From the NCBI GenBank assembly GCA_036517195.1, contig DATDXU010000018.1, positions 1 through 57,643 on the forward strand: a stretch of 57,643 bases of DNA, read 5' to 3'. This DNA is from Minisyncoccota bacterium (GTDB lineage: Bacteria; Patescibacteriota; Minisyncoccia; Phycocordibacterales; UBA2100). Positions 1 through 30,808 of the stretch are shown here, in pieces (the first letter of the stretch is position 1; every line of letters starts with the position of its first letter). The position numbers and the translations under genes are program-made. A model generated the notes under the pieces. The model was given only the letters and a program-made list of their open reading frames with translations. It did no database searches and was not told the origin of the DNA.

Positions 1-105
1 TTGGGTGAGGATGGGAATCGAAAGACGGAGCGCGACGGCGCGAGTCGGGGTCGCGTGAATTTTCACCAGAAAATTACGCGTGACCGATTCCCCTCATCGC
101 CCGCA
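1..105 (+). repeat. tRNA-3'-end-mimic structured repeat, copy A (may continue left of the window)
   Basis: Positions 5-105 are identical to 142-242. It starts GTGAGGATGGGAATCGAAAG and ends GACCGATTCCCCTCATCGCCCGCA; the two ends can pair. It contains an internal hairpin CGCGT(G)AATTTT/AAAATTACGCG. Confidence 0.85.
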
Positions 106-139: not shown

Positions 140-242
140 GCGTGAGGATGGGAATCGAAAGACGGAGCGCGACGGCGCGAGTCGGGGTCGCGTGAATTTT
201 CACCAGAAAATTACGCGTGACCGATTCCCCTCATCGCCCGCA
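138..242 (+). repeat. tRNA-3'-end-mimic structured repeat, copy B
   Basis: Identical to copy A, with a 137-bp period. Confidence 0.85.
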
Positions 243-5786: not shown

Positions 5787-6191
5787 TTAAGTCATTGCCC
5801 ACCTGTTTAATTTTGGTGCGCAGTAGAAAATAGTGAACGCAGAGAACAGAAGGATTCCTACTAACGTCATGGCGATGTATTCTGGAGAAAGTTCCCAGAG
5901 TGAGAAACCGACCCATTCCCTTAGTTGGTCGCCGATGAATGATTCTCTGCCGGAAATTGTTTCTGGATTGTATCTTGCTCGAAGTCCCATCTCGAGCGCG
6001 CTTAACGGACATCCTAAAAATGCGAGTTGCCCGATGGTGGTGCTCATAACAGCGACGAGATGGCAGTCTTGGAGCAACTTCCTCTTTGTATTGTATAAGA
6101 GAGAACTCGACACAAGTAACACAATCCAGAAAAGGTGGAACCAAAGGACGATGTCAGCGAGATTTTGATAGATTCCCATGACATACCCCAA
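5787..6191 (-). CDS. DUF2784-like membrane protein
   Basis: Hydrophobic ORF carrying GCPLSALEMGLRARY, which resembles the CPLT-x-E-x-LR signature of DUF2784. Confidence 0.5.
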   Translation of the reverse strand: MGYVMGIYQNLADIVLWFHLFWIVLLVSSSLLYNTKRKLLQDCHLVAVMSTTIGQLAFLGCPLSALEMGLRARYNPETISGRESFIGDQLREWVGFSLWELSPEYIAMTLVGILLFSAFTIFYCAPKLNRWAMT

Positions 6192-6278
6192 GTGTGTACG
6201 CTCCGCAGAGCAGGTTATTTACTGATAAGTATCTTAACACCTAGTTGTTACTAAGTCAAGGGGTGCACTATTTTCAAC

Positions 6279-6422
6279 GAGAGGCCTGCCTGCCGGCAGG
6301 CGGGGAGTCGGCCAAGAACGAATTTTTTCGCCGTCGCTCCAAAATTCTTCTTGGCCATGCTCGCGCGACCCCGCCTTCTGGCGTGGTACCTCGCGCTCAC
6401 TTTCGACTCCCTCTCCCAGCTA
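6279..6422 (-). repeat. tRNA-3'-end-mimic structured repeat, tRNA-Leu-distal copy
   Basis: It shares an identical block of about 56 nt (GCTCGCGCGACCCCGCCTTCTGGCGTGGTACCTCGCGCTCACTTTCGACTCCCTCT) with 6470-6617. It ends ...CTCTCCCAGC, like the tRNA-Leu acceptor. Confidence 0.85.
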
Positions 6423-6469
6423 CAAAATAATAGTCGCCAGACGCTAACGCCTCTGGCTCTTTTATTTTA

Positions 6470-6617
6470 TGCTGGGAGAGGCCTGCCGGCAGGCAGGCTG
6501 GGAGTCGGCCAAGAGCTCGTTTTATTGCCGTCGCAACAAAACTCCTCTCAGCCCTGCTCGCGCGACCCCGCCTTCTGGCGTGGTACCTCGCGCTCACTTT
6601 CGACTCCCTCTTCAGCA
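6470..6617 (-). repeat. tRNA-3'-end-mimic structured repeat, tRNA-Leu-proximal copy
   Basis: Plus-strand TGCTGGGAGAGG (6470-6481) equals the start of the tRNA-Leu reverse complement (6665-6676). A palindromic insert CCTGCCGGCAGG.. follows, then GGGAGTCGG. The far end, CTTTCGACTCCCTCTTCAGCA, is the inverted partner. Confidence 0.85.
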
Positions 6618-6664: not shown

Positions 6665-6745
6665 TGCTGGGAGAGGGAGTCGAACCCTCATGAGTTGCCT
6701 CGATCGATTTTGAGTCGATTGCGTCTGCCATTCCGCCATCCCAGC
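6665..6745 (-). tRNA. tRNA-Leu (anticodon CAA), long variable arm
   Basis: Reverse complement GCTGGGATGGCGGAATGGCAGACGCAATCGACTCAAAATCGATCGAGGCAACTCATGAGGGTTCGACTCCCTCTCCCAGCA. It folds as a cloverleaf with anticodon loop CTCAAAA and T-loop TTCGACT. Confidence 0.9.
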
Positions 6746-7820: not shown

Positions 7821-9362
7821 TCACCGTTGTTTTTCTTTTTGCGCGGTAAGTGCCGCACGAATGTGTTTTTTTGCCATATTTGTTTTTGCCATATCCTGCC
7901 ATTTGCGCGATGGTTTTGCGGATTTTTTCGTGAGTATTTCAACAATGTCGCCGTTCTTGAGTTCTGTATCAAGGGAGGCCATTTTTCCATTTACTCTTGC
8001 TCCAGACATGGAGTTGCCGATGTCGGAGTGAATGGCGTACGCAAAGTCAACCGGAGTTGCCGCAACCGGCAGGTCTATAACATCCCCGCGCGGAGTGAAT
8101 GCGAACACGCGGTGATTAAAAAAATCAGATTTTAGTGTTTGTAGGTATTCTTCTGACGCGGTAGCGTCATCGTGGGCAAGTTCTGTAACCCACTCGGGCA
8201 CCCCATGCGCGCGGACGGAAGAAGATTCTTGTTGGCTTTCGTTAAGTCGGGGGAAAAATTGCCTGATCCAATCTAATCCGACACCTCCGCGGGATCCCTC
8301 TTTGTGCGTCCTTTGTTTTCCTTTGTAGAGGAGGTGGGAGGCAACGCCAAAGAGAGCTTCTTGGTGTTGAGATTCCGTGCGTAATTGAATTTCAAGAGCG
8401 CCCCCATCTCCCGTATACACGGTGGTATGTATGGACTGGTATCCGTTTGGTTTTGGAAACGCGATGTAATCTTTTATTTTTCCTGGAACGGGTCTCCATT
8501 GGGCGTGGATTACACCGAGCGCGGAATAACAATCGGCAATGGCGGGAAATATGATGCGGAGCGCCAGAATGTCATAAATTTGGTCGATGTTCCAGTTTTT
8601 GCGTTCTAATTTTCTGAACAAACTATATACGCCCTTAATGCGTGCCTCAGTGCGGAACGTGCGGATGCCCGATTCCGCCAGTTGGCGTTTTACGTCCCGT
8701 TCTGTTTTCTCAAGACGTTTTTCATTCTCGCGACTGCGTTCTTTCAAAAGTTCTTTGACTTTTTCATACTCTTTCGGGAGCGCGTGGGGAAATGCGGCAT
8801 CCTCAAGGTCATTTTTAAGCACACTCATGCCGAGTCGGTCTGCGATGGGCGCGTAAATTTCAAGTGTTTCTTGCGCTATGCGCGTGCGCTTCACTGCGTC
8901 CGGCACATGTTCAAGAGTTCTCGCGTTGTGCAGGCGATCCATGAGTTTTATGATGAGGATGCGAATATCTTTTGCTGTCGCCGCAAATAACTTTCGAAGA
9001 GACTCTGTATGTCTTTCTAGTCCTTGGTAACGGAGTTTTCCAAGTTTTGTCACTCCATCAACGAGCTCTAGTACGCCGATTCCAAACTGTTCTTGTACAG
9101 CTTCTCCGCTTATCTTTGCGTCTTCTACCGTGTCGTGAAGGAGTCCCGCGGCAACCGCGTCCGCGTCTACCCCTATGTCTGCCAGCAAGTATCCGACTTC
9201 TGCCGGATGTATGAAATAGGGTTCACCAGAAAATCGCGTTTGTCCTTGGTGTGCTTTTTTGGAAAATTCGTATGCTCGTGTCACGAGAGAAATGTCTCGC
9301 TCCTCCTTGCTGTGAAGGACATTGAGAATGTCAGAGAGGGGACGAATACTTGCGTTTTGCAT
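7821..9362 (-). CDS. relA: (p)ppGpp synthetase/hydrolase, RelA/SpoT homologue, short form ending after the TGS domain
   Basis: HD domain (HPAEV..LHDTVED), synthetase region (YIAFPKPNGYQSIHT) and TGS (VFAFTPRGDVIDLPVAATPVDFAYAIHSDIG). No ACT/RRM tail. Confidence 0.9.
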   Translation of the reverse strand: MQNASIRPLSDILNVLHSKEERDISLVTRAYEFSKKAHQGQTRFSGEPYFIHPAEVGYLLADIGVDADAVAAGLLHDTVEDAKISGEAVQEQFGIGVLELVDGVTKLGKLRYQGLERHTESLRKLFAATAKDIRILIIKLMDRLHNARTLEHVPDAVKRTRIAQETLEIYAPIADRLGMSVLKNDLEDAAFPHALPKEYEKVKELLKERSRENEKRLEKTERDVKRQLAESGIRTFRTEARIKGVYSLFRKLERKNWNIDQIYDILALRIIFPAIADCYSALGVIHAQWRPVPGKIKDYIAFPKPNGYQSIHTTVYTGDGGALEIQLRTESQHQEALFGVASHLLYKGKQRTHKEGSRGGVGLDWIRQFFPRLNESQQESSSVRAHGVPEWVTELAHDDATASEEYLQTLKSDFFNHRVFAFTPRGDVIDLPVAATPVDFAYAIHSDIGNSMSGARVNGKMASLDTELKNGDIVEILTKKSAKPSRKWQDMAKTNMAKKHIRAALTAQKEKQR

Positions 9363-18703: not shown

Positions 18704-18777
18704 TGGGGGATCGTCTAACGGTAGGACAGCAGCCTTTGAAGCTGTTTATCTTGGTTCGATTCCAAGTCCCCCAGCCA
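18704..18777 (+). tRNA. tRNA-Gln (anticodon TTG), CCA encoded
   Basis: TGGGGGA...TCCCCCA acceptor stem, anticodon loop CTTTGAA, T-arm CTTGGTTCGATTCCAAG, and a 3' GCCA tail. Confidence 0.9.
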
Positions 18778-29982: not shown

Positions 29983-30132
29983 TGACCCTACGGGGAATCG
30001 GCGCAGCTCACTAAGATTTCTGTTCGTGCTTCGCGCTCCATAAATCTAAGTGGCTCCTGCCCTGGCTCGGCGTTCCCACTCGCTTCGCTCACGGGAGCCC
30101 TGCGCCTCCGCCTTTCGATTTCCCGTAAGATC
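29983..30132 (-). repeat. tRNA-3'-end-mimic structured repeat downstream of tRNA-Glu
   Basis: 29983-30000 (TGACCCTACGGGGAATCG) is identical to 30181-30198, the 3' end of tRNA-Glu. The other end, TTCGATTTCCCGTAAGATC, is its imperfect inverted copy. The interior is GC-rich and self-complementary. Confidence 0.85.
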
Positions 30133-30180
30133 TAAAAAAATATAATCACCCAACACTTCGTGTCGGTCTCATTATTTTTT

Positions 30181-30252
30181 TGACCCTACGGGGAATCGAA
30201 CCCCGCTTTCGACCTTGAGAAGGTCGCGTCCTAGCCGATAGACGATAGGGCC
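30181..30252 (-). tRNA. tRNA-Glu (anticodon CTC)
   Basis: Reverse complement GGCCCTATCGTCTATCGGCTAGGACGCGACCTTCTCAAGGTCGAAAGCGGGGTTCGATTCCCCGTAGGGTCA. Anticodon loop TTCTCAA. Confidence 0.9.
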
Positions 30253-30328: not shown

Positions 30329-30361
30329 CAAAAAAGAAAGTCGCCCGCAGGAGGGGCGACT
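30329..30361 (-). terminator. rho-independent terminator of the Zn-ribbon gene
   Basis: GTCGCCC/GGGCGAC stem. The A-run on plus becomes a T-run on minus. Confidence 0.6.
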
Positions 30362-30373
30362 GAGCCATCTTTT

Positions 30374-30808
30374 TCAATGTGCCACATCAGCGTAGGCGCT
30401 TAAAAGAGCGTATTCTTTCTGGTTACAGTACTTCTTATAACGCTTGAGTTTTTGTCTGGAGATTTGTCTCCATTCCGCAGGGGTCATAGCGTTTGGTTCA
30501 TTGGTGATTGCGAACGGCCGTTCCTTAGGTGTGCAAGAATGTTGCATTGTGACCATAAAGCTGTGAATCGTATCGATGTTTCCCCGAGAAAGTTTTCGCA
30601 TTTTCTGAAGTTGTCTTTTCGCAAGTTCAGTCCTTCTATACCACGCCAGATTTAACATTTCTCCTGATCGCATACCGCGAGAGATAGCATTCCTACATTT
30701 TTCACAATAGTGAGAATCAGGGAACACTTGTTCATCGGGTCGGTGGGACAGTGAATAGCAATATTTCCCACATCCATCGCAATGAATATCGGGGCGACGA
30801 TTTGTCAA
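30374..30808 (-). CDS. hypothetical zinc-ribbon protein (TTG start)
   Basis: CDGCGK...CEKC cysteine pairs. AGGAG lies 7 nt before the TTG. Confidence 0.45.
   Translation of the reverse strand: MTNRRPDIHCDGCGKYCYSLSHRPDEQVFPDSHYCEKCRNAISRGMRSGEMLNLAWYRRTELAKRQLQKMRKLSRGNIDTIHSFMVTMQHSCTPKERPFAITNEPNAMTPAEWRQISRQKLKRYKKYCNQKEYALLSAYADVAH

Follow-up and report, generated by a model that had tools for sequence, protein, structure and literature searches.

We found that the 150-nt element behind the tRNA-Glu(CUC) gene of a Minisyncoccota bacterium (GenBank assembly GCA_036517195.1, contig DATDXU010000018.1) is one member of a large family of units that trail tRNA and transfer-messenger RNA (tmRNA) genes in the Candidate Phyla Radiation (CPR, Patescibacteria), a family that is apparently uncatalogued and absent from Rfam 15. 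The whole stretch of 57,643 nt was analysed and is called the window below. Members of the family are linked to tRNA genes, keep to the tRNA strand and share a covarying fold. The RtT-type architecture of the family is itself known and poorly understood. With slightly better than even confidence, we read the element as a structured RNA whose ends derive from the tRNA and which is produced from, or downstream of, tRNA transcripts; this and a reading as a DNA repeat are not mutually exclusive.

An earlier, sequence-only reading of the locus had described an exact 18-nt duplicate of the tRNA-Glu 3' end capping the element, and the repeat search bore this out. The segments 29983-30000 and 30181-30198 form an 18-nt direct repeat (100% identical, starts 198 nt apart), and the tRNA-Glu 18-mer, with up to 3 mismatches, occurred at just these two sites in the window (shuffle mean 0.02). 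The locus is composed of the following parts.

30181..30252, (-): tRNA-Glu(CUC) gene (ARAGORN; Rfam tRNA model, 54 bits), with no encoded CCA.
30181-30198, (-): proximal direct-repeat copy (repeat D1), the last 18 nt of tRNA-Glu, positions 56-73.
30133..30180, (-): 48-nt spacer with an A-run, the hairpin CCGACAC-GAA-GTGTTGG, GTGATTATA and a T-run; fold -11.3 kcal/mol.
30132-29983, (-): 150-nt element; element-alone fold -62.5 kcal/mol, two GC-rich arms.
30114..30132, (-): inverted copy (IR-L) GATCTTACGGGAAATCGAA, an imperfect inverted copy of tRNA positions 72-54 and the 5' strand of closing helix P1 (repeat I1; fold).
30064..30113, (-): junction AAA(G) and arm 1 (RNAalifold consensus, pair counts, single-sequence fold).
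30112-30110 with 30066-30064, (-): helix Pa of arm 1, GGC/GCC, then the internal loop GGA/GA.
30106-30103 with 30072-30069, (-): helix Pb of arm 1, GGCG/CGCC; the variable hairpin hp1 closes the arm.
30000..30061, (-): arm 2 (consensus, fold, pair counts), with helix Pc, GGC/GCC (30061-30059 with 30002-30000), and after it the loop AGG/G(A)C, Pd AGC/GCU, a bulged A, Pe CACU/AGUG, a U-U mismatch and the variable hairpin hp2.
29983..30000, (-): direct copy (IR-R) CGATTCCCCGTAGGGTCA, the exact distal copy of tRNA-Glu 56-73, which gives the P1 3' strand and an acceptor-strand tail (repeat search).
29993..30124, (-): extent of the match to covariance model R1, built without the Glu sequence; 95.9 bits, E 1e-29, full-length.

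When the element was folded by itself, its opposite end paired with the duplicate, as had been proposed, over 11 bp, an A/C mismatch and 4 bp, with two G-U pairs included. Together with the flanking A and T runs, the IR-L segment is a 26-nt, 85% inverted repeat (I1) of the tRNA's own 3' end. Its acceptor complement is only two C-to-U changes from perfect, with G-U pairs kept, and its T-stem part has one further difference, scored as the A/C mismatch. The spacer hairpin CCGACAC/GTGTTGG and the later T-run were present as described, and the single-sequence fold of the element gave back the helices of the family's consensus three-way junction.

The family was sampled from public CPR/Patescibacteria genomes and uncharacterised metagenome contigs, and its loci are cited here by L numbers. 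With a degenerate pattern, scanned across one genome per species, we found 108 loci, ~20 of which were in Patescibacteria metagenome-assembled genomes (MAGs) of Saccharibacteria, Paceibacterota and Nomura-, Zambryski-, Campbell- and Yonath-bacteria, with the motif ~55 nt past a same-strand tRNA. The other loci (Variovorax, Roseiarcus, Dehalococcoidia and others) were set aside as chance matches in coding or high-GC sequence with no tRNA, and a Roseiarcus match to R1 (22.6 bits, GC 0.71) was treated as spurious. When metagenomes were scanned with a pattern of the Glu interior, 30 loci were obtained in which that interior stands behind tRNAs for Cys, Gly, Glu, Lys, Arg, Phe, Asp, Gln, Ser and Ile. 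The collection comprised 52 non-redundant pairs of tRNA and element, with spacers mostly of 46-50 nt. Across the family the IR-L segment matched the T-loop and T-stem of each adjoining tRNA; its sequence tracked each T-loop (GGGATTTGAA behind TTCAAATCCC, GGACTCGAA behind TTCGAGTCC, GGGAATTGAA behind TTCAATTCCC), and the distal copy of tRNA positions 56-73 was exact (18/18) in 22 of the 52 members. By position the Glu element is a regular member, with a spacer of 47-48 nt, an exact 18-nt copy and an IR-L, and a spacer module of the tRNA-Glu type, with a modal length of 46-50 nt, was present in most members.

Model R1 was built from 21 elements of the interior type found at the Glu locus (type C), with the window sequence left out. 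Over 47 loci it gave 67 matches, 47 of them no more than 130 nt downstream of a same-strand tRNA, with 16 amino-acid identities represented. A further 6 matches were tandem, 5 stood at contig ends and 9 lay elsewhere; at least two of these 9 follow a tmRNA gene at ~60 nt.

L138 202-324, (-): tmRNA-linked member, ~60 nt behind the tmRNA at 389-778.
L044 6516-6596, (+): tmRNA-linked member, ~60 nt behind the tmRNA at 6065-6456.

The orientation of the R1 family was always that of the tRNA strand, and all tRNA-linked matches from named genomes came from Patescibacteria MAGs. About half of the tRNA genes in the sampled loci carried at least one unit of 100-150 nt, and tmRNA genes carried units too. 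The gathering-score scan of the whole window against Rfam 15 found tRNAs only and no family for the elements, scans of all three element regions at E up to 10 gave only tRNAs and noise, and neither ARAGORN nor the Rfam tRNA and tmRNA models made a call on the Glu element. A full-text literature search returned no description of a CPR tRNA-linked element.

The consensus of the family is a three-way junction with two GC-rich arms in a unit of 100-150 nt, in which P1 pairs the inverted with the direct copy and the junction reads AAA. Arm 1 passes through Pa, the GGA/GA loop and Pb to a variable hairpin that shrinks to as little as GGCUCAGCC; arm 2 passes through Pc, the AGG/G(A)C loop, Pd, a bulged A, Pe and a U-U mismatch to its own variable hairpin, and holds the near-invariant motifs GCCGAG..GGGCAGGAGCCACTTA and TTAGTGAGCTG. 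The unpaired nucleotides of the interior are conserved. A helix through GGCGCAG/CTGCGCC, as drawn in the sequence-only reading, appeared neither in the Glu single-sequence fold nor in the family consensus, which use GGC/GCC plus GGCG/CGCC in arm 1 and GGC/GCC in arm 2. Resemblances seen by eye to the K-turn, the hammerhead, group II domain V, signal recognition particle RNA and 5S RNA were rejected because loop sizes or invariant triads misfit.

The fold was supported by compensatory change. In a MAFFT alignment of 22 type-C sequences, in which several invariant columns were set by the search pattern, 94% of the cells were paired, against 83% after shuffling and ~32% after sliding; double changes were found at 12 of 26 pairs, and covariation was 0.303 vs 0.104. 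The 64 distinct sequences aligned with the model reached 95.5% paired cells (shuffled 70.4%, slid ~30%), a percentage inflated by the fitting of this alignment to the model's structure. Double changes occurred there at 20 of 21 pairs, and the covariation score was 0.53 vs 0.155, with 0 of 500 shuffles as high.

The two tRNA-derived ends differ in how well they are kept. Among the 52 elements, the acceptor strand of the direct copy matched the tRNA exactly in 30 (mean 5.6 of 7 positions) and the acceptor segment of the inverted copy in 2 (mean 3.1 of 7 positions; p 7e-7). Since the inverted segment so rarely matches, the acceptor-like stem is a decaying relic in most copies; the 7-bp stem claimed before stands at the Glu locus and does not hold as a family feature. 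The acceptor half of the closing helix was paired in only ~60% of cells across the family, which keeps instead a ~10-bp T-loop/T-stem helix and a tRNA-identical 3' tail. Set against a minihelix of a 7-bp acceptor and a 5-bp T-stem, the Glu locus offers its interrupted 11 and 4 bp, and the family an acceptor half that is not conserved. Where the direct copy departs from the tRNA in the acceptor part, the inverted copy more often agrees with the tRNA than with the direct copy (16 vs 7), a count biased by the way in which IR-L was located (ascertainment).

Five units lie in the window, one after tRNA-Glu, two after tRNA-Leu(CAA) and two at the window start, and the motif GGGARTCGAAAG, with 1 mismatch allowed, had 5 sites there against 0.66 expected. 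All five share one layout: tRNA end, hairpin spacer, complement of the tRNA's T-loop, T-stem and acceptor, AAAG, GC-rich interior and tRNA 3'-end copy. The four units besides that of tRNA-Glu are listed here.

6500..6609, (-): first type B unit after tRNA-Leu(CAA) (6665-6745), seen in the sequence; R1 19.9 bits, filters off.
6303..6412, (-): second, tandem type B unit after tRNA-Leu, seen in the sequence; R1 22.1 bits, filters off.
12..92, (+): first type A unit at the window start, with its tRNA upstream of the window; R1 34.4 bits, E 1.4e-9; compared with L023 and L059.
149..229, (+): second, tandem type A unit at the window start; R1 34.4 bits; interior identical to that of the first unit.

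The Leu and window-edge copies had been placed with the Glu element before, rightly, and its interior had been described as differing from theirs except at the junctions. An unrelated interior is not supported: R1 matched the edge copies and, with filters off, the Leu copies, so the three interior types form one superfamily. In full, the first Leu unit spans ~6612-6470, with an extra hairpin (~6498-6481) inserted in IR-R; the IR-L of the second, GCTGGGAGAGGGAGTCGAA, reproduces the reverse complement of the tRNA-Leu 3' end without a mismatch. The IR-R of the first window-start unit, CGATTCCCCTCATCGCCCGCA, resembles a tRNA-Val(GAC) end.

Insertions at the ends of units were seen on both sides. 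In both Leu units (6481-6498 and 6275-6300, (-)) a GCCTGCC..GGCAGGC hairpin sits in the direct copy, between the T-stem GACTCCC and the acceptor CTCTCCCAGCA, which makes for a more tRNA-like branched end; the last Leu unit has lost its acceptor segment (CTCTCGTTG). Type-A/F units behind tRNA-Glu in L105, L110, L025 and L141 show the converse: there a hairpin interrupts the inverted copy, with the acceptor complement on one side and the T-stem complement on the other, for example TGACTCCA-[AGCACTATTCGGGGAATAGTGC]-GACGGGGAATCG.

The closest known parallel is RtT (RF00391), the 178-bp repeats of the Escherichia coli tyrT locus. Like the CPR units, RtT repeats lie in a tRNA operon on the tRNA strand, often in tandem, and have a GC-rich, multi-branched interior. 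An RtT unit ends in AATCCTTCCCCCACCACCA, an exact copy of tRNA-Tyr 58-76 that starts inside the T-loop, and CPR units follow the same plan; it begins with the complement, GGGGAAGGAT, which gives a ~10-bp closing stem and an unpaired acceptor tail, as in the CPR family and as the Rfam RtT consensus shows. Three RtT units stand at E. coli tyrT, annotated in RefSeq as 'processed from tyrT transcript'. PMC4986893, citing Bosl and Kersten 1991, describes the release of a discrete RNA from the tyrT transcript; RtT-family RNAs also lie beside other tRNAs in Pasteurellaceae and are expressed in Actinobacillus, as seen on Northern blots (PMC4986893). Their role is still described as unknown (PMC4986893; bioRxiv 10.1101/2024.07.17.603846). 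In E. coli (L142, 1035-1641) the RtT interiors hold a relic of the tRNA-Tyr T-arm (AAGGTTCGACT), and RtT therefore looks assembled from tRNA-gene pieces.

Homology between the two was rejected in both directions. RF00391, which scores 121-134 bits on the E. coli units, gave no match at E up to 10 in the three window regions (gathering score 45 bits), and R1 gave none on the E. coli tyrT locus. Unlike RtT, the CPR family has a three-way junction with its own conserved loops, a repeat that begins at C56 and lacks CCA, a terminator-like palindrome ahead of each unit, and CPR rather than gamma-proteobacterial hosts, with at least 16 tRNA identities and tmRNA. The CPR family is thus the same kind of object as RtT and not a member of the RtT family. 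Plant mitochondrial t-elements and the mascRNA/MALAT1 3' end offer another likeness, in that a tRNA-derived mimic of the acceptor and T arm could attract RNase P, RNase Z or the CCA-adding enzyme and so define RNA ends. The Glu-locus stem reproduces a 7+4-bp acceptor/T helix of this kind, but the CPR family does not conserve the acceptor half of such a mimic, and the mascRNA model matched only the real tRNA.

The two strands of the units do not fold equally well. Of the two strands, that of the tRNA gave the stabler fold in 42 of 46 elements (mean difference -8 kcal/mol, p 1e-8), and the sense helices held 99 G-U pairs and 7 A-C single mismatches, the antisense helices 66 and 21. In the structured-RNA reading that we favour, transcription of a unit would start at the tRNA promoter and read through, or start at a -10-like box in the spacer, and the transcript would fold into the three-way junction. 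Because the unit closes with the T-stem and the acceptor 3' strand of its tRNA, the tRNA end-processing machinery might then trim it to a stable small RNA, as with rtT RNA from the tyrT transcript. A downstream role may lie in tRNA maturation or stress signalling. Recombination or template switching at the shared T-loop/T-stem would be the probable source of new copies and of interior swaps between tRNA loci. Promoter-like sequences were found directly upstream of tRNA-Glu (TTAACA-16-TATATT, a good site) and inside the spacer hairpin, where CCGACA-16-TATATT (30166-30139, (-)), a consensus match only, has a predicted start at ~30132, the element's first base. The CGAYTATATTTTT box of this spacer also occurs in related spacers of L005, L007 and L095.

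Several points weigh against a structured RNA. The spacer after tRNA-Glu is a terminator-like palindrome, and in most loci, judged from the listed spacer sequences, a strong terminator-like palindrome of A-run, hairpin and T-run separates tRNA and unit; a joint transcript would therefore depend on read-through, or the unit on a promoter of its own. A single-stranded DNA that folds could also show this covariation and strand bias, and the high paired fraction of the 64-sequence alignment partly reflects its construction. In the acceptor part of the family's closing helix, 27 G-U against 16 A-C pairs is too weak a difference to serve as a test of RNA selection. A generic role in processing leaves the conserved, tRNA-specific 3' tail unexplained. 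Ends that exactly match the adjacent tRNA, tandem arrays, chimeric units in L141 and differing interiors behind one tRNA are hallmarks of a dynamic DNA repeat.

The main rival reading, possible though doubtful in our view, is that the units are selfish or neutral non-autonomous palindromic DNA repeats, spread and shuffled among tRNA and tmRNA tails by unequal crossing-over, ectopic recombination or template switching during replication. The T-loop and T-stem would then be microhomology, and the fold would belong to a single-stranded DNA intermediate or be hitch-hiking. The junctions lie exactly at the T-loop, with the direct repeat starting at C56 and the inverted copy ending at T54, and tRNA 3' end, spacer and IR-L form one long palindrome; the terminator-like hairpin that stands between tRNA and unit also speaks for this reading. 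These junctions fall in the only sequence common to all tRNAs, where recombination or template switching could move interiors while the ends stay locus-specific. Presence and interior type do vary behind one tRNA among lineages: tRNA-Glu(CUC) is followed by type C in the window and L141, type B in L095 and L078, type A in L105 and L110, and no unit in L002 and L003. Conversely, one hp1 variant (GGTATACAAGAC...) stands behind at least five tRNA identities, namely Glu, Gly, Gln, Ile and that of L137, whose upstream gene was not called by ARAGORN. Tandem arrays occur in the window, L007, L108 and L135. In L133 the spacer has been duplicated together with the repeat, with compensatory changes in the spacer hairpin. 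One type-C unit of L141 has an inverted copy of the Glu type and a direct copy, CGATTCCTGCTGGGAGCA, that matches a tRNA-Arg(GCG) end, which suggests, on its sequence, recombination between units of different tRNA loci.

Other properties do not suit a DNA repeat of this kind. Unpaired nucleotides are conserved and 20 of 21 pairs covary across distances as large as Saccharibacteria to Paceibacteria, folding and G-U pairs are asymmetric between strands, and the orientation is always the tRNA's. That the direct copy stays exact while the inverted copy decays is unexpected for neutral repeats, and Pfam showed no candidate enzyme (integrase, transposase or reverse transcriptase) nearby.

Further rearrangements were noted in single loci. 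The array of L141 (~8875-9250, (-)), behind tRNA-Glu(CUC), includes a small, different interior type with CATGTAATG, also present in L079. In L139 (~230-1620) a tRNA-Gln and a type-C unit, as in L133, are followed by a 1.4-kb segment with an acidic-repeat open reading frame (ORF) and then by two more units with a tRNA-Gln end, one of the interior type GGAGAGGGGTCGGG..., which also occurs behind tRNA-Asp in L125. In L117 (~681-830, (-)) the 5' half of a tRNA-Glu (acceptor strand and D arm, GGCCCTATCGTCTAACGGTTAGGAC) is fused to a type-C interior in a stand-alone chimera, which ends in CGATTCCCCGTAGGGTA and in which ARAGORN called no tRNA. L002, with the same tRNA-Glu, a homologous spacer and no unit, was rejected as a clean empty site, its tRNA being inverted relative to murF and its contig ending 250 nt on, and L001 is too short for such a comparison.

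In a further reading, which we regard as unlikely, the units would be a new kind of tRNA-templated element whose conserved distal copy pairs with the tRNA 5' strands, giving an alternative, T-loop-expanded tRNA-like RNA that controls tRNA maturation. A copy would gain the adjacent tRNA or tmRNA 3' end in both orientations, either at the terminator palindrome, where the strand folds back or the template is switched, or by a route through RNA and reverse transcriptase. If this is true, RtT and the CPR family would be two cases of a general, overlooked tRNA-trailer switch.

Still less probable, to the point of being quite improbable, is the related proposal of an alternative 3' end, T-loop 'intron' or switch, in which the tRNA 5' strands pair with the distal copy while IR-L sequesters the proximal 3' half, and the outcome is a functional or regulatory tRNA-like RNA with a giant T-loop insertion. 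The predicted minimum-energy fold of the whole transcript agrees with it (-115.2 vs -107.0 kcal/mol for tRNA, spacer and element folded separately), the distal acceptor strand is kept exact, as pairing with the tRNA 5' strand needs, and the tRNA-Glu 5' half of L117 is fused directly to a type-C interior. The tendency of IR-L to follow the tRNA over IR-R where the two differ also points this way, on counts that carry the bias in locating IR-L described above. The proximal copy, however, already provides a complete tRNA, co-transcriptional folding favours the cloverleaf, and nothing pointed to splicing or to a used distal end. Units with a short spacer and no acceptor complement also exist (L057, L061).

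Among tRNA att sites, the classic T-loop class has a direct repeat from the T-loop to the 3' end, and it is in this light that the 18-nt copies could be attL and attR of an element that integrated in the tRNA T-loop and was later deleted to ~180 bp, in the manner of a cis-mobilizable element (CIME). Such a relic of site-specific integration is highly improbable here, and in its simple form it is already refuted. The repeat does span T-loop to tRNA 3' end, tmRNA genes are targeted too, tandem accretion is common to both, and L139 has its 1.4-kb ORF-bearing segment between two units with a tRNA-Gln end. Yet Pfam found no integrase in the flanks, a search of whole loci for distant tRNA-end copies found none, and two pattern scans of viral contigs together with two blastn searches returned zero matches to viral contigs, phages or plasmids. 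Unlike CIMEs, the units have no kb-scale cargo, and they carry an inverted tRNA-end copy, for which an att remnant has no need. Behind 16 tRNA identities stands a homologous ~130-nt interior whose fold is conserved, not the outcome to be had from independent deletions, and in L002 a tRNA-Glu has the homologous hairpin and T-run spacer without a unit. The sequence-only reading had likewise doubted a classical attL/attR pair, on good grounds; as the outcome that would refute it, it had named the decayed att site of a larger island without conserved structure, and here no larger island was seen and the fold is conserved.

The attP of CTX-type phages (XerCD) resembles a CPR unit in that two inverted target copies could fold to a hairpin mimicking the duplex target. 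From topology, integration of a CTX-type circle would give the order seen: target copy, hairpin tip (spacer), inverted copy, body, target copy. The CPR unit differs in its ~180 nt without genes and in ends that match many tRNAs, unlike a single att specificity; we know of no recombinase or circular form for CPR units. A miniature inverted-repeat transposable element or other non-autonomous transposon was rejected, one repeat copy being the right arm itself and the other lying a 48-nt spacer away from the left arm, with copies found almost only behind tRNA and tmRNA genes and ends that change with the tRNA.

The gene on the far side of the Glu element encodes MurF, as had been said of the upstream gene, and by the homologues of this MurF the window belongs to Patescibacteria, close to Kaiserbacteria. 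The flanking ORFs encode MurF, a penicillin-binding protein and ATP synthase a, and one has no Pfam match, the 144-aa ORF at 30374-30808 (-) adjoining tRNA-Glu. After this ORF lies a canonical, terminator-like hairpin (30339-30361, (-)), whose plus strand gave a weak match to RAGATH-25 (17.2 bits vs a 49-bit threshold). Nearly all tRNA genes of the window and of the CPR loci lack an encoded CCA and continue with CA and an A-run (N73-CAAAA...); tRNA-Gln at 18704-18777 is the sole window tRNA with encoded CCA, and it has no trailer element.

CPR genomes are tiny, yet units of 100-150 nt follow about half of the tRNA genes in the sampled loci, which makes this a sizeable family there. The tyrT/RtT arrangement is not a one-off: its architecture recurs in very distant bacteria, which gives a much larger comparative data set on the role of tRNA-trailer RNAs. 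Resembling att sites and tRNA fragments as they do, the units will cause errors in the annotation of genomic islands and pseudo-tRNAs in CPR genomes, and they look like breakpoints for recombination between tRNA loci.

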